From: Spizellomyces punctatus DAOM BR117
Lineage: Eukaryota
Length of the DNA: 64,000 bases
Reading direction: 5' to 3' (one strand)
Assembly (NCBI GenBank): GCA_000182565.2
Contig: KQ257467.1
Shown piece by piece: positions 47,645 through 58,511 of the stretch. The notes below the pieces were generated by a model. The model made no database searches, was not told the DNA's origin, and was given only the letters and a program-made list of their open reading frames with translations. The translations under genes and the position numbers were made by a program. How positions within the stretch are numbered: position 1 is the first letter of the stretch; every line of letters starts with the position of its first letter.

Positions 47645-48606
47645 TTAAGCCTGGTTCTGGCTGATAATACCCTGGATCCAAGACTTGTAGGCCTCGACCT
47701 TGGTCTGTAAATGCGAATAGGTCAGGATCGTATTACAGGACAGTAAGATGTTCTAGCAAACAGGGGAACAAGACTTACGTAGACACCAGGCTTGCCCTTG
47801 ACAGCACAGCCCTCACCCCAGGAGGTGACACCCTCAACGCTGTAACCGCTGGCGGTTTGAACAAAGAGAGGGCCTCCAGAGTCACCCTGGCAAGTGTCAA
47901 CACCACCCTGAGGGAAGGCAGCACAGATGTTGGTAGCAGTAATCTTACTGGCACTGTAGGCTTTTGCACAGTCTGCCTGAGATACTACAGGGACGGTGGC
48001 CTCCTGAAGGATGTTAGCGTCGGAGTTGTCGTTTCCGTCTTCTGTCAAACCCCATCCTGCAATTTTGACTTTGGTGCCAGCAGTAGGGGCCCCGTTACCG
48101 TACTTGACGGTTTCAAGGGTAGAACCAAAGTTGCTCTTTTGCTTAAGAACCCAGATAGCAATGTCGTTCTTGTCAAGGCTGGCCGAGTACTGCGGGTGGT
48201 TGATGACCTTTGATACACTGAAGACGATACCCTTCTCCGCGCTGGGAGTCTTGGATTTGTCCCAGCGGTGGGTGTGGACGGTGGTTGACGCGACAGGGAT
48301 GCCAATGAGGGCCGGGCTGCAGTCTACAGTTAAAAAAGGGATTAAGCCTGTGCGCAAGCATATCAGAAATCATAATGTAGTATACTTACGAGCAGCAGTC
48401 AAGTAGATGTTGGGAGCAATCATGGATCCACCACAGAATTGTCCGCCATTGTACTGAGCGAAAGCAATCCAGTTGTATGCAAAAGGCGAGGTATCGTCAC
48501 CACCAACGATTGAAGCTGGGGGAGGGGTTTGTTGGGGGATGACACCACCCATGACAGCCGGAGCGGCGAGTAGGGCAGCGGTGAGATAGGTGTTGAGGGG
48601 AGCCAT
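47645..48606 (-). CDS. Secreted trypsin-like serine protease (S1A)
   Basis: Signal and propeptide then IVGG; CGGS; TAAHC (His codon split by an intron); NDIAI; DTCQGDSGGP (S1 Asp implies trypsin specificity); SWGEGCA; PGVY|TKV...WIQGII. Confidence 0.95.
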
Positions 48607-50340
48607 GTCTGTCCTATGAGGTTGTGTGCAAGAGAGCAAAGTAACTAGAGTTGGAAAGACGCTGGATGATTGGAGGTCGAGGCGACTTGCTCTCCATTTT
48701 ATAGACTTGCTGCCAAATTCCTTTCCACAACCTCAAGAAATTGCCCCTGGTCAAAACATCTTGCAAAAGACGTAAGACGAAGCCGAGCAAGTCCGTTTTC
48801 GTGCGCTGTCATCCATGATCAAAACGATCAGAGCAAGTGCGCGCAAAAAGCCAGGATGAAAGCGCAGGTCAGATAAGACCCGATCGGGTAAAAAAATGTA
48901 AAAGGAGAGCGTGGATACAGCACAAAGAAGCAAGCAATCATCTTTTTCACGCCTTCCATGTAGTGTAGTTGGCATGTTGTTGAACGTTTTGGTATCTTGA
49001 GGACCGAAGAGGATTGCATGCAAGGCTTGTGTAGCAAAGTGACTCTGTTGCGCAGTGTTCAAAAGTCTTTTTACGGACTTGGTGCCAAAGGAGAGGTGAC
49101 CTTTGTTATTCATTAGAGTCAATTTGCAACAATGGCTGGTGTCCACCATCGGCTGATGCGCAGACGTCTTATCCCGAAAAAGTGACCACCCCGTCCCTCG
49201 GTCGGTTGAGGACAGATTGGGATGCTTGTTTTGATCAACAAAGGAAACAAAGATGCCAACAGGCAAAAAGATCAAATGACAGCAAGATCAGCGTTTGTCC
49301 CAAATTTTTTGAGATTGTTGATTTTCAAAAGTTCTAGCTTTTGGTTCCAAAGGAAGTATCAAATGCCAAGCGATTCCCCGCCGATCACGACAAACCTAGC
49401 GCACTTTTTGTTATCGTTGCTGTAGACCTGTTGCGGGGTATTTTACTTTTGTTTTCCGTGAACTGCTCCTTTAGATTAGTGGACGAAAAACGGTTTTTGT
49501 CTTCCATACTGGCCATCACTTTTTGGTCAACAATTTCGTTAAAAAAGCTGTACCTCCTTCCATCGTTGGACAGGTGCTGCACGCATGGTGAACACTTGTC
49601 CGAATTTGTGCACAGCCTTTTAAAGGAATACACTACTGGGAGACCCAACACTCTGAACACTGCAGCGAGTTACTTTAGAACAAAACCTGATTGAAAACAA
49701 TGGTGGTCGTCCTGCTGGCAAGGATTTTCATCACATCATCGTGCATTAAAGCGCACGGGGAGCAGCACGCAGGACAAATGGTGGTTGGTTAGTTGCTGGC
49801 CATTTCCTTTGGAATGATTCATTACACTCTTTGAAGAACTTTTTTTTTCCTTTCACTGCTGTTCCTGCGTACTGATCAAAATGATACGAATAAGGAAATT
49901 GCCAAACTATCGGACTGTTTGCTGCATGGACTTGATCAGTATCAAGCATCGTTTGATTTCATTACAAATTGAACGCATGGCACTTTTGCACTGCATCCTG
50001 GATGATGCCCTTTATACCCGCTCCCAGCATATTGTAACCGTGTTTTATCTTCTAAATGCCCAAGTTGAACTCAACCAACACATTGCAGAATACCCCGACG
50101 TCTTGCATAAAATGACATTGATCAAGTCATAGCAGTCCCCACGCCACATCATGTTTGAAAGCCCAGGACCCTATTGCCACGACGCTTTCCATAAATCGAT
50201 ATTTCGCACACCTGTCAACAAAAGATGACGAGTCTGTGCGGGAACAAAGGCGAACGATGGAGACCCGTTTAGATACTGGTGCCGTGTCATTTACGTCCGC
50301 CATGTCATCAGCTATTGCAAGCCCAGGAAGGCTACTACGA

Positions 50341-50346
50341 TATAAA
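50341..50346 (+). promoter_or_regulatory. Putative TATA box of the ubiquitin-like gene
   Basis: TATAAA ~120 nt upstream of ATG 50463. Confidence 0.35.
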
Positions 50347-50462
50347 GATGCAAAGGTTGTTGGCAATTGTGACTTGCGGGTTCCTTTTTTTCCACAAGCC
50401 AAACATCGTTACATCGACGTCTATCACAAAGAATCCGTGCATTCAGCAACACGACGGCCAGT

Positions 50463-50818
50463 ATGAACTACCTCCGCACCGCCTTGGGGAATGGCACTAG
50501 CAGCATGCCAAACGGGATGACAAAGTCGGAGCCTTTTACGATTTTTGTGCAGGTCAATGGACACTCCACTCAGTTGACCGTTAGGGGTGATATGAGGTAT
50601 GTCGGCTCTCTCTGCAAATCGCCTTTCCCTAGCATATTAACAATGGCTCTAACAGTGTGAACACCCTGCGTTCAATGATTGAAACAAACTGCAACGTCCG
50701 GGCGGACCGTTTGACGTGCGGCTCAAAGGAGCTAGCCAACGGCAAATCTTTGAGCGACTACCGCGATTTAGCAGAGGGGGCGACAGTCCAAGTTGTTGCT
50801 AGGTGCATTGGAGGCTGA
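50463..50818 (+). CDS. Divergent stand-alone ubiquitin-like protein (98 aa) ending in Gly-Gly
   Basis: Intron 50597-50655 (GTATGT...CTAACAG) yields ...FTIFVQVNGHSTQLTVRGDMSVNTLRSMIETNCNVRADRLTCGSKELANGKSLSDYRDLAEGATVQVVARCIGG-stop, which aligns by eye along the length of ubiquitin. Confidence 0.8.
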
Positions 50819-51550
50819 TGTGCGTTGGGCAGAACGCACACTTGTTTTTCATTTGTAGGAGGCACTTTGTATTGATTTGCAGTAGATTCTCTTGATGTCG
50901 GGGAAGGCACGCAGGGTTGTATATCATCGGCATAGTGTTGCATAGCTTTTCATGTTGGTATTGCAAGTGCAAGGAGAGATATATATAATTTTATTTGCAC
51001 TGCATCGCTGCAGCCAATTGTCGAAAACCATCCGCAAGTCCTACATGGTCGACAACGGCATGCAAGTGCTTTGGGTCGGCTGGGCAGGCCACGTAAGCAA
51101 ATGACTCCAAAAGGTTACTAAGCACATTCCATCCATCTTTATTTCTGGTGATCTGGATCTAATGCACTCTAAGATGCGTTGGAATGTATTTTTATTTTTT
51201 GCGAGTTTCGGAACTTCTGTTGCTCGTCGTCGTCGTCGTCGTCGTCGGGCTTTTGTCTTTTTTTGCTTGCCTTTTGCTTGGAGGAAGGCTGCTGGATATT
51301 TCTTGTTTTGAACCCTCAACTCTTTGCAAGCAACAATTCAGCCTTCCTTTTCTAATTTTTGTTTTTTTGCTCGCTCCGCCTTTCTCGTTTGAGGGTTAGA
51401 GGTGCTTATGGAGTAGTGAACTGGAAAGCGAGACTTCATGCTGACTTTTTAGTTGCAACAACAGAAACGTGAAACGAGCAAATAACGAACGTTGTACGGA
51501 AAGCGGAAGCATATCTTTTCACTCTACACACTGAATTGCCAAAAAGCGAT

Positions 51551-54500
51551 ATGGCCAACACCCTTCAGGAGCCGGCGGACGCACAAACCACTGCAAACCA
51601 GCAACAGGCAGATGGCATTGTAGCTGCACGGCCTTCGCCACCCATCACATCGCCTCCTATTGGTGTCAACGCTGGTACGATTGCGACGCTGCTTTTGAAC
51701 GATGGGACAGCCTATGAGGGCTACTCGTTCGGGTCTGAGAAACAGTCGATCGCTGGAGAATGCGTTTTTCAAACTGGTAAGTTGATCAATTAAATTGAGC
51801 AAAGCCCAGCGACGTGCGATCTCAAATCGCACGTCGATCTTTGCGATGCTCCTGTCTTTCGGTTGTCCATATGACTCATTCGTCCTTAAATTAAGGAATG
51901 GTCGGTTATCCGGAATCCCTCACGGATCCATCGTACCGAGGACAGATCCTGGTCTTGACATTCCCACTTGTGGGAAACTACGGTGTCCCATCTCGCAAGG
52001 ATGTAGATACGCATCTCAACAACTTGCAAAACTACTTTGAATCCGTCGAGATTCATATTGCGGCTCTTGTTGTAGGTCACTACTCCCATGACTTTTCACA
52101 TTACCTGGCCGACTCTTCCCTTTCGACCTGGTTGAAAGAAAACAACATCCCGGCCTTGTATGGTGTAGATACGCGTGCCCTTACCAAAAAAATTCGGACA
52201 AAAGGTGTTCTTTTGGGCAAAGTTTTGTTTCCAAAGGCCTTGGTGGGTCCCGGAATCACTGGACAAGAGGACTCGGCAGCATTGCCATGGATGTCTGAAT
52301 ACTCGGACGTTGCCTGGCACGACCCCAACTCACGAAACCTCGTTGCGGAAGTTTCAGTGAAGAAGCCCATCGTATATACTCCTCAAGATGAGAGCAAATG
52401 GGTTCGCGGAACAAACGGAAAGGTTTTGCGAGTTTTGGCGATTGATGTGGGCTTGAAGAATAATCAGATTCGGTGCTTCCTGAAACGGGGAGTTGAAGTT
52501 AAAGTTGTCCCATGGAACTACGACTTTATTGCGGACCGCGACTATGACGGTCTTTTCATCAGCAATGGGCCCGGTGACCCGACAACGCTTAAAGAAACGA
52601 TTGAGCGCCTTGCAAAGCAAATGAAAGCCGCTGATAAACCCATATTTGGTATTTGTCTCGGTCACCAGCTTATTGCCCTTGCTTCTGGTGCTCAGACGAA
52701 AAAGATGAAGTACGGTAACCGTGGGCACAATATCCCCTGTACCAATCTGCAAACCGGTCGATGCTACATTACTTCGCAAAATCACGGGTACTGTGTGGAT
52801 GTTGAGACATTGACCCCCGGCTGGAGAGAGTACTTTGTAAACGCAAATGATGGATCAAACGAGGGTATTATTCACGACACACTACCTTACTTCAGTGTCC
52901 AATTCCACCCGGAGTCTACCCCGGGTCCTTGGGACACAGAGTACCTCTTTGACCGATTCATTGCATGTGTTGCTGCCTGCAATCAAGCTGGCAAGCTGGT
53001 TCCTCTTTCTAGTGAAGACAAACGGCCGGCTGCCGTGCGACACCACCCACGTAAAGTGTTGATCTTGGGATCCGGTGGTTTGTCTATTGGTCAAGCTGGT
53101 GAATTCGACTACTCCGGATCTCAGGCGATCAAGGCGCTTAAAGAGGAAGGCATTTATACTATTCTCATCAATCCCAACATTGCTACCATTCAGACATCTC
53201 AAGGGCTGGCCGACAAAGTCTACTTCCTCCCAGTCACCCCCGACTTTGTGCGCAAAGTAATCAAACACGAAAAGCCCGACGGTATATACTGTACATTTGG
53301 AGGACAGACTGCTCTTAATGTCGGTGTGAAATTGAAGGACGAATTTGAAGGACTGGGCGTCCAGGTGTTGGGTACTCCTATCAAAACTATTGAACTCACA
53401 GAGGATCGTGATCTGTTCGCCCAAACGATGGCGGAGATTGGAGAAAAGTGCGCCAAGAGCGAGTCTGCAAATAACGTCGACGAGGCTGTTGCTGCCGGTC
53501 GCAGAATTGGATATCCTCTTATCGTTCGTGCTGCTTACGCGCTGGGTGGGCTTGGGTCTGGCTTCGCTGATGACGAGGCACAATTGGTCGCACTTTGCCA
53601 GAAGGCCTTTGCGACGTCCCCGCAGGTGCTTGTGGAAAGGAGTATGAAGGGATGGAAGGAAATTGAGTATGAAGTTGTTCGCGACGCCAACGACAACTGT
53701 ATCACGGTCTGTAACATGGAGAACTTTGACCCTCTCGGTATCCACACTGGAGACAGTATCGTTGTAGCCCCATCGCAGACGCTATCCGATGAGGACTATA
53801 TGATGCTTCGTCGTACGGCTGTGAATGTGATTCGCCACCTGGGAGTTATCGGCGAATGTAACATTCAGTATGCCTTGAACCCCAAGTCAAAGGAGTATTG
53901 CATTATAGAGGTGAATGCCCGTTTATCACGTAGTTCGGCCCTTGCCTCAAAAGCCACCGGATACCCTTTGGCCTTCGTTGCTGCCAAGCTCGGTCTTGGA
54001 ATTCCGTTGACCGAGGTGAAAAACAGTGTCACCAAAAAGACGATTGCCTGCTTCGAGCCCAGTTTAGATTACTGTGTTGTCAAGATTCCTAGGTGGGATT
54101 TGAAAAAGTTCAACCGTGTCAGCACGAAGGTCGGGTCTGCCATGAAGAGTGTAGGAGAAGTCATGGCAATTGGACGCAACTTTGAAGAGACCATTCAGAA
54201 AGCTATTCGGGCAGTCGAATATAACTTCATTGGCTTTTCCGAGAACGACATCATTGACCAAGACAAAATTGACGAGGAGCTGAAAAACCCATCTGATCAG
54301 CGTCTCTTTGCCATTGCAAATGCTCTTCACAAGGGCTACTCGGTTGACCGCGTGTGGGAACTTACCAACATTGACAAATGGTTCTTGAACAAGCTCAAGA
54401 ACATTGTGGACTTGGACAAGCAGCTTGGAACATTCACCCCACAAACCGTTCCTGCGACTCTGATCCGCTGCGCCAAGCAAATTGGTTTCTCTGATCGACA

Positions 54501-57500
54501 GGTTGCGAAAGCCATTGGCACGACCGAGTTAGGAGCACGTAAACTTCGGACGGATCATGGAATCCGACCTTTTGTCAAGCAAATCGATACAGTTGCTGCC
54601 GAGTTCCCTGCTTACACCAACTATCTGTATATGACGTACAACGCCGCCGAGCACGATGTGACGTTTGAAGACAAAGGTGTCATGGTTCTTGGAAGCGGTG
54701 TTTACCGTATCGGTAGCAGTGTGGAATTCGACTGGTGCGCAGTGCGCTGTATCCGCACATTGCGTGAAACCGGTGTGAAAACGATCATGGTCAACTACAA
54801 TCCTGAAACCGTTTCCACCGACTATGATGAAGCCGATCGATTGTATTTTGAGACGCTGACTCTTGAGCGCGTGCTTGACATTTACGAGATGGAGAACGCG
54901 AATGGTGTTATCGTCTCCATGGGTGGTCAGACACCAAACAACATTGCCTTGCCTTTGCATCGTCAGAATGTGAAAATCTTGGGCACTTCACCCGAAATGA
55001 TTGACAATGCAGAGAATCGTTACAAATTCTCTCGAATGTTGGATAAAATCGGCGTGGATCAACCTCAGTGGAAAGAGCTGACCTCCATCCAGGAGGCCAC
55101 GTCCTTCTGTGACAAGGTCGGATACCCCGTTTTGGTACGTCCTTCCTACGTCCTTTCTGGAGCCGCGATGAACGTGGTGTACTCGCAAAATGACCTGCGA
55201 AGCTACCTGGATCTCGCTGTACAAGTGTCACGCGATTACCCTGTGGTTATTTCAAAGTTCATTGAAGAAGCCAAGGAGATTGAGATGGATGCTGTCGCGG
55301 ACAATGGAAACTTGGTCATGCATGTTATTTCGGAGCATGTAGAGAATGCCGGAGTTCACTCAGGTGACGCAACATTGGTTTTGCCACCTCAAGATTTGGA
55401 TCCTGAGACTGTTAGAAAGATTGTGGATGCTACCCGCAAGATTGGTAATGCACTGAACGTGACGGGTCCGTACAACATTCAGTTTATCGCCAAGAACAAC
55501 GAAATCAAGGTGATTGAGTGCAATGTGCGCGCATCACGGTCGTTCCCTTTCTGTTCCAAAGTCCTTGGAGTTGATTTGATTGAGATGGCAACCAAGGCCA
55601 TGACGAATCAGCCGTACGAGGCCTACCCACCAGTGGAGACAAAGAAGGACTACGTTGCTGTGAAAGTCCCGCAGTTCAGTTTCAGTCGTTTGGCTGGTGC
55701 TGACCCTATCTTGGGTGTGGAAATGGCCTCCACGGGTGAGGTGGCTTGTTTTGGTCGGGATAAGTACGAGGCGTACATCAAGGCGCTACTGGCTACGGGA
55801 TTCACCATGCCAAAGAAGAACATTCTGTTATCGATTGGATCGTTCAAGGAGAAACTCGAATTCTTACCTTCTGTTCAGAAATTGCATGAAATGGGCTACA
55901 GCTTGTTTGCTACCACTGGAACGGCGGATTTCATCCAAGAACACGGTATTCCCGTCAAGTACTTGGAAGCGCTCGATGACTCTGGCAAACTTCCTCAACA
56001 AAAGTTGGAGTACAGTTTGACCCAGCATTTGGCGAATAATTTGATTGATTTGTACATCAATTTGCCTTCGAAGAACCGTTTCCGTCGCCCTGCCAGCTAC
56101 ATGAGTAGAGGATATCGCTCACGTCGTATGGCTGTAGACTTTGCGGTGCCGCTCATCACCAACGTCAAGTGCGCTAAGCTGTTTGTTGAAGCCCTGAGCC
56201 GATGGAAAGAATTTGAGATTACTTCGAACGACTATCAAACCTCCCACAAGACTGTCACTTTACCTGGACTGGTCAATGTGCGTTCGTATTTGCCCGGAGC
56301 CATCCCTCAGGCAGAGGAATGGGAGAGTTTGACCAAGGCTGCGGTTGCGGGTGGATTCACTCTTATGTGCAACATGCCTTCGCCGAGCAAGGGGATGAAA
56401 CCTACCGTCTTTTGCGATTATGCTGTGTCAACTGTGGCAACCCAAGAAAACGCCAATTCTATTAGCGTTGGAACAGGCAATGCCTTGAGTCTGTATATCG
56501 GCTTTGGGGCTGGCCAATTAAAGACTCTAACAGACTTGGCTGGTCACATGCGTAATTGGCCCAGAGACAGTCCAATGATTGCTTGTGCTAAGGAAACTGA
56601 TCTCGCATCTGTCTTGTATTTGGCCAACCTCCACAATCGGTCGATTCACGTCACAAACATTCGCACGTCCGCTGATGTGGAATTGATTGCGATGAGTAAA
56701 GAAAAGGGCGTGGATGTTACTTGCGATGTGTGCGTCGATAGTCTCTTTTTGACGAAAACGAACGCTGCTGGTGATAGCGATGTGCAAGTCACGCAGGGTG
56801 ACATTGACGCCTTGTGGCAGAATCTGGCTGTGATTGATTGCTTCTCTGTCACTGGACGGGTTGGACAGGGCCAAACCGGGCTACGCATGGAGGACGCTTT
56901 GCCCCTTTTGTTGGGTGCGGTTTCAGAGGGCAAATTGACTATGGATGATGTCCGGGCAAGGTTGTATGACAACCCCAAGAGAATCTTTGGTCTGCCTGAG
57001 CAGGTCGATACATATGTTGAGGTGAGTCAGGGCGCACAGGTTACATGAGCTGGGCAAGAGGTTGACCTTTTCTCTTTTGCGTGGGATAGGTGGAGATTGA
57101 CCGTAGATCTGGTGCTGGTCGTGCGGGTGGTCCTTCCCCGAGCGGATTCATTCATCGCGTGGTAATCCGTGGTGAGACAGTTTACCTTGACGGCAGTTTC
57201 TTTGACGGACCTACTGGGCGAGATGTTACCGGATCAGTCAGAATCAGCTCCCAAAGCGTTCTTCCTGTTACTGCTCGGCGAACCTCGATTCTTCCGGTGG
57301 ACCAGAAGGAAGCGACCGCGAGTGTTGTTCCCAAGAGTCCACGCCCGAGGGTGTCCGTGGACGGTCCTTTGGTGACCGGTCCCATGAGTCCTGATGTGCA
57401 CACCAAAGACAGCGGGCTCTCAACGTTAATGAAGGGATCATCCATTGGAAGTACCAAGGAGTTAACCGTGCCACTTACGGAGACTGTCCAGCGTGCCGTA

Positions 57501-58511
57501 CAACAGACCATCAACATCTCGAACAGCCCCTACATTTCGGACTATCTGTCTAGCTCTGCATCGGCAGCCGTTGCAAAGTCGCCCTTCTTCCGCAAGCACA
57601 TTCTTTCCGTAAAGCAATTTACCCGCAACGATCTCCACATGCTCTTTGGTGTCGCGCAAGAGATGCGGACATTGGTGGAGCGATTTGGCAGTGTCAATCT
57701 GCTCGCAGGTAAAGTGATGTGTTCCGCGTTCTGGGAGCCTAGCACCCGGACGAGCTGCTCCTTTGAAGCTGCCATGAGGCGATTGGGAGGTGGGGTTGTG
57801 AGCATTGATGGCGAGACCAGTTCCGTCAAGAAGGGCGAGAGTTTGGGTGACACAGTTCGGACGCTGAGTTGTTACGGCGACGTGATCGTGATGAGACATC
57901 CTGCTCCTGGTAGTGCGGTACAAGCGTCCACCTACTCTACCGTTCCAGTTATCAATGCTGGAGATGGAATTGGCGAGCATCCCACGCAAGCGTTCCTGGA
58001 CGCTTTCACCATCCGTGAAGAATTGGGCACTGTGAATGGATTGACCATTACCATGGTCGGCGACCTCAAGAATGGCCGAACAGTGCACTCTCTCGTACGC
58101 CTCCTCTCCCAATACGACGTTAAACTCAACTTTGTCTCCCCACCCACTCTCCGCATGCCCGATGAAGTTAAGGCAGAAGCCACCAAGGCTAACATCCCGC
58201 AAAACGAAACCACATCGCTGGAGAGCGTGATTGGCACTACGGACGTGCTGTATGTCACTCGTATCCAGAAGGAGCGGTTTACAAACCCTGCCGAATATGA
58301 GTCCGTTTTGGGGGCCTATGTGGTTACCAATAAGCTCCTCCAAAAAGCCAAGCGTAACATGATTGTCATGCACCCGCTTCCTCGCGTCAATGAAATTGAT
58401 GAAGAAGTGGATTTCGATCAACGTGCGGCGTACTTTAGGCAGATGCGTTATGGGCTTTATGTCAGGATGGCGCTATTGGCTTTGGTGTGTGGCAAGAGCT
58501 CGACTGCTTAG
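51551..58511 (+). CDS. URA2: Multifunctional pyrimidine biosynthesis protein: GATase-CPSase-(inactive DHOase-like)-ATCase
   Basis: Exons 51551-51776, 51896-57021 and 57090-58511; [76 protein letters not shown]. Confidence 0.97.
51799..51844 (+). other. Inverted repeat / hairpin in URA2 intron 1
   Basis: cgacgtgcgat (51810-51820), 5-nt loop, atcgcacgtcg (51826-51836); outer pair gcaaag/ctttgc. Confidence 0.8.

Follow-up and report, generated by a model that had tools for sequence, protein, structure and literature searches.

Fungi are generally credited with few ubiquitin-like modifiers, and these are regarded as well charted. Ubiquitin proper has a near-invariant sequence, ends in the tail LRLRGG and carries the Ile44 patch, and it can be aligned end to end, with the same hydrophobic core, to the 98-aa protein considered here, which is encoded within a stretch of 64,000 nucleotides (the window) of contig KQ257467.1 from Spizellomyces punctatus DAOM BR117 (GCA_000182565.2). 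This protein differs from ubiquitin in bearing an N-terminal arm of about 25 aa and in being encoded on its own, with a stop codon following Gly-Gly, rather than in a fusion or a repeat array. NEDD8/Rub1, whose single ubiquitin-family domain also closes with Gly-Gly, resembles ubiquitin far more than the 98-aa protein does, and FUBI, which has few lysines, likewise combines a Gly-Gly end with a strongly diverged domain of the ubiquitin family. Urm1, MoaD and ThiS are made with a free C-terminal Gly-Gly and need no maturation; they form another branch of the beta-grasp fold, whereas exon 2 of the present gene matches ubiquitin instead. Divergent ubiquitin-family domains at a similar distance from the 98-aa protein are found in FAT10 and UBL4A, with scores too weak for a specific relationship. 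FAT10, described as being conjugated through its C-terminal diglycine, differs in its two tandem domains and in being vertebrate and cytokine-induced, and UBL4A differs in being no modifier. Furthermore, the Ala72 of NEDD8 gates the choice of E1, according to the accessible part of a phage-display study (PMC3731359), while the 98-aa protein has Arg at that position. FUBI, as far as the consulted sections of PMC8354635 describe it, is made in holozoans as a fusion with eS30 and then cut off, while the stop follows Gly-Gly directly in the gene under study.

Overall, the locus most likely holds a real, unannotated and lineage-restricted gene for a stand-alone ubiquitin-family protein with a ready-made Gly-Gly.

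Structure of the gene

The sequence-only reading had proposed that the removal of a 59-nt intron yields a 98-aa protein ending in ARCIGG and a stop. This two-exon model was reproduced, the joined exons giving a frame of 297 nt in which the motifs quoted in support of it (IFVQ, RLTCGSK and GKSLSDY) were all present (Table 1). Left unspliced, the frame terminates at 50658-50660. The intron has a TTAAC about 15 nt before its 3′ end and a CTAAC abutting the terminal AG. Alignment with the protein of a relative mapped two introns in the CAD gene next to it, of about 118 nt (GTAAGT donor) and about 67 nt (GTGAGT donor), so the proposed intron would be ordinary for a Spizellomyces-type genome.

Both ends of the frame agreed with the claim that the protein stands alone. 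The first in-frame ATG after the upstream TGA is the proposed start codon, and the protein cannot extend further upstream within exon 1 because of that TGA. At the other end, the stop codon lies right after Gly97-Gly98, with no in-frame continuation downstream. Thus, the C-terminus is encoded directly as Arg-Cys-Ile-Gly-Gly, no protease being required to expose Gly-Gly, and the accessible C-terminal Gly-Gly that marks conjugated (type-I) modifiers is present in the primary product. Upstream of the gene, a frame of 50 codons begins with an ATG at 50348 and extends past the proposed start codon; the transcript would carry it if plus-strand RNA began near 50340. The putative promoter role of the TATAAA element fits only if the transcript starts 3′ of 50341, which corresponds to one of the two readings of the RNA given below. 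In addition, a perfect 8-bp hairpin (GTGCGTTG...CAACGCAC-like) is predicted at 50819-50840, directly after the stop codon.

Table 1. Features of the ubiquitin-like gene and its flanks, in window coordinates
Feature	Position	Strand	Description
Exon 1	50463..50596	+	ATG at 50463, 134 nt; Ser/Gly/Asn/Thr-rich arm of about 25 aa, then beta-strands 1-2 (IFVQ...LTV)
Intron	50597..50655	+	59 nt, phase 2; GTATGT...TTAAC...CTAACAG; falls where ubiquitin has residue 21/22
Exon 2	50656..50818	+	Remainder of the ubiquitin-like body (helix, strands 3-5), ARCIGG tail and TGA
In-frame TGA 5′ of the start codon	50370..50372	+	Stop-to-stop ORF in the frame of exon 1 begins at 50373
TATAAA, possible core promoter element	50341..50346	+	117 nt 5′ of the ATG; the sole TATAAA in 50200-51200; role inferred
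Transcribed flank, probably 3′ UTR	50819..51031	unsettled	Contig of a root-metagenome RNA library (X1), reads of RNA run X5; TATATA at 50980

Coding potential and choice of the splice

Codon usage was scored after training on eight long ORFs of the window, whose in-frame pieces gave 0.196 ± 0.12 bits per codon and whose off-frame pieces gave −0.20 ± 0.14. The scores reached 0.225 bits per codon in exon 1 and 0.134 in exon 2, the claimed frame being the best of six for each of them, and other small ORFs nearby ranged from −0.07 to 0.08. The frames of the intron were negative, with the exception of one minus-strand frame of 19 codons (+0.095 bits per codon).

Moreover, a ubiquitin profile was built from 47 non-redundant repeats of the ubiquitin-like proteins retrieved with exon 2. 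The spliced protein scored 30.8 bits against it, compared to 21.5 for exon 2 alone, −0.4 for exon 1 alone and −1.1 for the unspliced product; since exon 2 had served as the query for the profile members, its score may be flattered, the contribution of exon 1 being independent of this. Residues 26-97 of the spliced protein aligned to profile positions 2-75, with exon 1 in register with ubiquitin positions 2-21. The contribution of exon 1 amounted to 9.3 bits and was matched by only 3 of 2000 shuffled versions of this exon (shuffle mean of 21.5, sd 1.6). Among the 137 open GT-AG joins into exon 2, the proposed splice ranked at the top (29.8 vs. 26.2 for the next one), and its donor was the best as well. 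Furthermore, a single one of the 1377 ORFs in the window (stop to stop, at least 30 aa) matched the ubiquitin profile, namely the exon-2 ORF at 50633-50815 (25.4 bits, the next one reaching 4.8), and seven of these ORFs ended in GG. The match of exon 2 to ubiquitin exceeds chance.

Conserved and substituted residues

Identity to the ubiquitin consensus was found in 21 of the 71 aligned residues. As for the hydrophobic core, 17 of the 18 columns that are hydrophobic in at least 90% of the ubiquitin repeats stayed hydrophobic, the exception being Ile44, which lies on the surface. The retained residues were Arg42, Lys48 (K69), Tyr59, Val70, Arg72 (R94) and Gly75-Gly76, and the substituted ones were Leu8 to Val, Ile44 to Thr (T65), His68 to Gln, Leu71 to Ala, Leu73 to Cys (C95) and Arg74 to Ile (I96). 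The HMMER alignments to ubiquitin repeats therefore returned all the replacements that had been read from the letters at positions 44, 73 and 74, together with the maintenance of Arg72 and Lys48. This last residue is the only one kept of the seven ubiquitin lysines, Lys6, Lys11, Lys27, Lys29, Lys33 and Lys63 being lost. Moreover, three small indels were detected, with one residue fewer in the first hairpin, two fewer before strand 3 and one more after Tyr59. Such retention of the core while the surface changes is expected of a diverged domain that still folds and functions, and not of random decay.

Assignment to the ubiquitin family

In Pfam, exon 2 alone matched PF00240 with an E-value of 0.009 and 16.2 bits, compared to a cut-off of 25.4 bits, the query being 53 aa long and covering only the C-terminal part of the domain. 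No other Pfam family was matched by exon 2 at E ≤ 10, including PF11976 (Rad60-SLD), PF09138 (Urm1), PF02597 (ThiS/MoaD) and PF13881, and exon 1 alone had no match in Pfam or among PDB sequences. Within the PDB sequences, exon 2 aligned to residues 41-76 of ubiquitin, each single ubiquitin giving about 15-17 bits; the polyubiquitin chains owe their very low E-values to summation over repeats. The best single-domain matches were FAT10 (19.5 bits, E = 0.0086) and UBL4A (17.5 bits, E = 0.037). In the ESM Atlas, the best score for exon 2 was 0.87, compared to a mark of 0.9, and the leading matches were all of the ubiquitin family. The AlphaFold2 prediction of exon 2 alone, run without an alignment on what is half a domain, had a mean pLDDT of 60.7, and the two-chain prediction with the peptides of exon 1 and exon 2 scored 0.02 (mark of 0.34); neither of them speaks for or against the fold. 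Judging from the alignments, membership in the ubiquitin family (PF00240, beta-grasp) is supported by the full-length, in-register profile match and by the kept core, and this part of the initial proposal was borne out by the profile, Pfam and PDB-sequence matches to ubiquitin.

The proposal that the protein is none of the canonical modifiers was likewise upheld with regard to ubiquitin proper and NEDD8. Ubiquitin proper is ruled out by the identity of 21/71, the ARCIGG tail and the Thr at position 44, and NEDD8/Rub1 was rejected for Arg94 occupying position 72, where NEDD8 has Ala. SUMO was discarded for the lack of a PF11976 match at E ≤ 10 in the C-terminal 53 aa and for the stop right after Gly-Gly, which leaves no propeptide, and a seeming similarity in spacing was not upheld. 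FUBI-eS30 was discarded for the TGA at 50816-50818, with no eS30 frame downstream, and Urm1/MoaD/ThiS for the lack of PF09138 or PF02597 matches for exon 2 at E ≤ 10. A CaaX-prenylated membrane-anchored ubiquitin-fold protein (MUB) was also considered and provisionally dropped. Cys95 is exactly the fourth residue from the end (CIGG), as a CaaX box would have it; such a box does not usually end in two Gly, and PF13881 was not matched by exon 2 at E ≤ 10.

It is accordingly very improbable that the gene is a diverged chytrid copy of one of the characterised modifiers (NEDD8/Rub1, SUMO, FUBI, Urm1 or Hub1). The N-terminal arm and the ...IGG end speak for such an origin, and a missing Gly-Gly gene is conceivable given that the annotated SUMO orthologue of S. 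punctatus is without the usual diglycine, according to the available part of a review (PMC7691676). Against it stand the Arg at position 72 in place of the Ala of NEDD8 (PMC3731359, in its accessible part), the restriction of the Pfam matches of exon 2 to PF00240, and the PDB search, in which none of the best 60 of 212 matches was named NEDD8, SUMO, FUBI, ISG15 or Urm1. Moreover, no eS30 coding sequence follows Gly-Gly, and FUBI-eS30 is given as holozoan in the consulted part of PMC8354635. As a separate observation, the form of the annotated S. punctatus SUMO reported in that portion of the review (PMC7691676) may reflect a mis-modelled last exon in the annotation.

Search for relatives

Relatives were searched with exon 2 only (53 aa), a query that would miss orthologues below about 50% identity. 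The word-based search returned 14 candidates among proteins of 94-2000 aa, none of them at E ≤ 0.01, and no candidate among proteins of 29-93 aa. The HMMER scan of 1.84 billion representatives yielded 105 matches at E ≤ 0.001, all with two to eight matched stretches and thus repeat proteins, and the seven that were inspected were all multi-repeat ubiquitin-like proteins. In the JGI metagenome contigs, none of 594 pattern matches was confirmed as a relative. The unspliced 65-aa product was absent from the protein collection by exact look-up. As this collection includes the annotated proteomes of Spizellomycetales relatives, the absence of a match in those proteomes and of a record of the unspliced product indicates that the gene is unannotated.

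The finding that no relative closer than ubiquitin was detectable with a 53-aa query is weaker than it sounds, as the gene is small and split and its orthologues may easily have been missed by the annotators of related genomes too. Thus, the view of a lineage-specific modifier was in part sustained, since four large searches gave neither a closer relative nor an annotated copy, and in part left as it was, as those searches were all negative and made with the short query. In the portions of the literature on chytrid and Spizellomyces ubiquitin-like proteins that were accessible, supplementary files aside, no report of such a protein was found.

Genomic context

Downstream of the gene lies a CAD/pyrABCN gene (carbamoyl-phosphate synthase and aspartate carbamoyltransferase) at 51551-58508 on the plus strand, with two introns. 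Its product is 97-98% identical to that of Spizellomyces sp. 'palustris' over two large exons and 88% over the short first exon; in particular, the first 500 residues of the large exon at 51895-57045 are 98% identical to this relative and 86% to Powellomyces hirtus, and the next-best matches are found in other Spizellomycetales and then in other chytrids. These identities place the window in the Spizellomycetales. Within the upstream region of the CAD gene, a GTC trinucleotide run occupies 51213-51255 (read as repeated Arg or Asp, according to frame), where reads were skipped as repeats.

The upstream neighbour is a gene for a trypsin-family serine protease at 47725-48732 on the minus strand, with at least two exons (PF00089, E-values of 6e−37 and 1.4e−5). 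Furthermore, a plus-strand ORF of 84 codons (83 aa from the first Met) was found at 49878-50132, bracketed by RNA coverage of a single orientation at 49829-50211, in which five of five molecules ended exactly at 49829. This ORF has no Pfam match, a weak codon score of 0.067 bits per codon and no entry in the protein collection, and it may be either another small unannotated gene or the site of a non-coding RNA on the other strand. The Rfam search of 49500-51600 gave only a sub-threshold match to SNORA35 (H/ACA snoRNA) at 49604-49714 on the minus strand, with 19.6 bits compared to a gathering score of 39 (E = 0.96), which is probably due to chance.

Transcription of the locus

The locus is transcribed. 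An RNA run with the same species label (X5) was used as raw reads, about 6% of it being sampled, and 114 reads fell on 49700-51600. They appeared across 50340-51107, with high depth at 50724-50979, a hole at 50212-50339, and only about 0.6-4x over the coding part, in two opposite orientations. Near the junction, no joint was listed at the threshold of 3 reads and no read joined 50596 to 50656; the depth there was about 1x, at which the reads cannot show the splice. The pairs whose first mate was on the minus strand covered 49828-50211 and 50340-50723, with depths along the second stretch of 5.95, 2.84, 2.61, 0.89, 0.53 and 0.61. The pairs whose first mate was on the plus strand covered 50404-51107, with depths of 1.59, 1.27, 0.17, 0.09 (the intron bin), 0.56, 2.86, 5.73, 3.41, 4.41, 1.55 and 0.88.

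These orientations admit two readings. Under the convention of most stranded kits, with an antisense first mate, a plus-strand RNA would start near 50340, carry the ATG at 50348 and fade in exon 2, and exon 2 and the flank would be overlapped by an RNA from the minus strand; the way in which the 49829-50211 coverage neatly brackets the plus-strand 84-codon ORF speaks for this. With a sense first mate, one plus-strand mRNA would run from about 50404 to about 51100, with a minimum over the intron and a 3′ bias. Such a transcript would start 3′ of the TATAAA at 50341 and without the upstream ATG, fitting the gene model neatly, and the sole read on the plus-strand CAD gene speaks for it. The overlap of opposite orientations (50404-51107 vs. 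49828-50723) would correspond either to an antisense or convergent transcript, or to an upstream RNA on the minus strand.

In addition, a contig from a root-metagenome RNA library (X1) equalled 50781-51031 with 0 differences, giving no strand and being a possible case of DNA carry-over. Another contig (X2, 50513-50995) crossed the intron unspliced, and it comes from a run whose kind is unrecorded and which is probably genomic. The flank at 50781-51031 matched no Rfam family and folded no better than shuffles on either strand, so this well-covered stretch is not an evident structured RNA.

Both the coverage and the frames bear on whether a longer gene ends in these two exons, in which case the ubiquitin-like domain would belong to a bigger protein. 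A good acceptor-like site (a pyrimidine run and AAG) does lie at 50378-50397 in the upstream open frame, and the depth hole could be an intron. Nevertheless, 50340-50403, the deepest-covered stretch of the locus, holds the in-frame stop at 50370-50372, the upstream ORFs are near zero for codon usage, and the frame closes directly after Gly-Gly, all of which makes this explanation scarcely probable.

The locus may otherwise derive from a ubiquitin-family gene and be decaying or never translated, with low and possibly mainly antisense transcription and no functional protein. The low depth with no junction reads is compatible with this view, as are the dominance of opposite-orientation reads at 50724-51107, the possible upstream ATG at 50348, the lack of an orthologue or annotated copy with the 53-aa query of exon 2, and the ubiquitin identity of just 21/71. 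However, the frame is intact across a canonical intron, both exons show gene-like codon usage, 17 of 18 core columns have remained hydrophobic while the surface changed, which is a pattern of constraint, and the stop after Gly-Gly is preserved; decay is hence considered unlikely. All in all, the locus probably encodes a translated ubiquitin-like protein.

Putative function

The explanation preferred as a whole, and held tentatively, is that of a two-exon gene for a stand-alone ubiquitin-family protein that acts through the E1, E3 and deubiquitinase steps set out here. Its product would combine a flexible N-terminal arm of about 25 aa, a beta-grasp body and a ready Gly-Gly. According to the accessible text of the phage-display work (PMC3731359), the ubiquitin E1 strictly needs Arg72 and strongly prefers Gly75, with relaxed demands at 71, 73 and 74; the NEDD8 E1 does not accept a positively charged residue 72; and non-native residues at 74 or 75 block ubiquitin transfer from E2 to HECT and RING/U-box E3s. 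Similarly, the ubiquitin mutant L73P cannot be processed by deubiquitinases and is slowly transferred from E2 to HECT, as stated in the consulted part of PMC10667490. As the tail keeps the E1-critical Arg72 and Gly-Gly and alters 73 and 74, it would suggest charging by E1 with a poor flow to E3s and poor removal by deubiquitinases.

In particular, a Uba1-type E1 could adenylate the 98-aa protein and link it as a thioester, which the NEDD8 E1 would not do, given Arg72. Then, Cys73/Ile74, Thr44 and the loss of six of the seven lysines would weaken the hand-over by standard E3s, the recognition by receptors of the Ile44 patch and the cleavage by deubiquitinases. The outcome would be a sparse, rarely removed and long-lived mono-modifier, or a competitor at the level of E1 and E2. 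These statements on E1, E3s and deubiquitinases carry over results obtained with ubiquitin mutants of human and yeast, and the Thr at position 44, on the body surface, may equally prevent the binding of E1. Moreover, no orthologue that would speak for purifying selection on the protein or on its Gly-Gly was found with the 53-aa query of exon 2, which is counted against the explanation. The altered recognition by deubiquitinases put forward in the sequence-only reading agrees with the mutagenesis of positions 73 and 74, within the accessible portions of PMC3731359 and PMC10667490; the conjugation that it presupposes is something we infer from the tail.

Taken separately, covalent conjugation of the 98-aa protein is rather doubtful. 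A more specific version, in which a chytrid-restricted, ready-made modifier would enter through the ubiquitin E1 by means of Arg72-Gly-Gly and escape deubiquitinases and the readers of the Ile44 patch owing to Cys73/Ile74, Thr44 and a lack of chain-forming lysines, has a low probability.

On the other hand, the protein could be translated and never conjugated, acting by binding only, for instance by serving ubiquitin-binding proteins, the proteasome or the E1 and E2 enzymes as an adaptor or decoy, with a Gly-Gly kept by descent. The evidence for the gene model and for the retention of the fold suits this view equally. Residue 74 is non-native, and such changes blocked the transfer of ubiquitin variants from E2 to E3 (PMC3731359, in the part available); keeping one of the seven ubiquitin lysine positions makes the building of chains unlikely. 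By contrast, a stop placed exactly after Gly-Gly and an Arg72 kept amid a changed tail are what conjugation would select for, and the GG end is confined to the seven window ORFs mentioned above. Non-conjugated ubiquitin-like domains, moreover, mostly sit within larger proteins. On balance, a role through binding only appears improbable, and the preferred explanation continues to be that of a stand-alone protein charged through its Gly-Gly.

Biological significance

The case illustrates how short genes split by an intron are missed by annotation. If the locus turned out to be untranslated or confined to a single species, it would be a mere curiosity. If real, it would provide a stand-alone, pre-matured and divergent member of the family in a transformable chytrid, and thus a natural experiment on the tail and surface positions required by E1s, E3s, deubiquitinases and receptors; transformation of Spizellomyces punctatus by means of Agrobacterium is feasible, as the accessible parts of PMC7213984 and PMC10267658 describe. 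Furthermore, if the protein were indeed a conjugated modifier, it would represent a new conjugation signal in early-diverging fungi, and trypsin would leave a Lys-linked CIGG remnant and not GG. The finding would gain greatly in importance with orthologues that retain the Gly-Gly or with the observation of conjugates.
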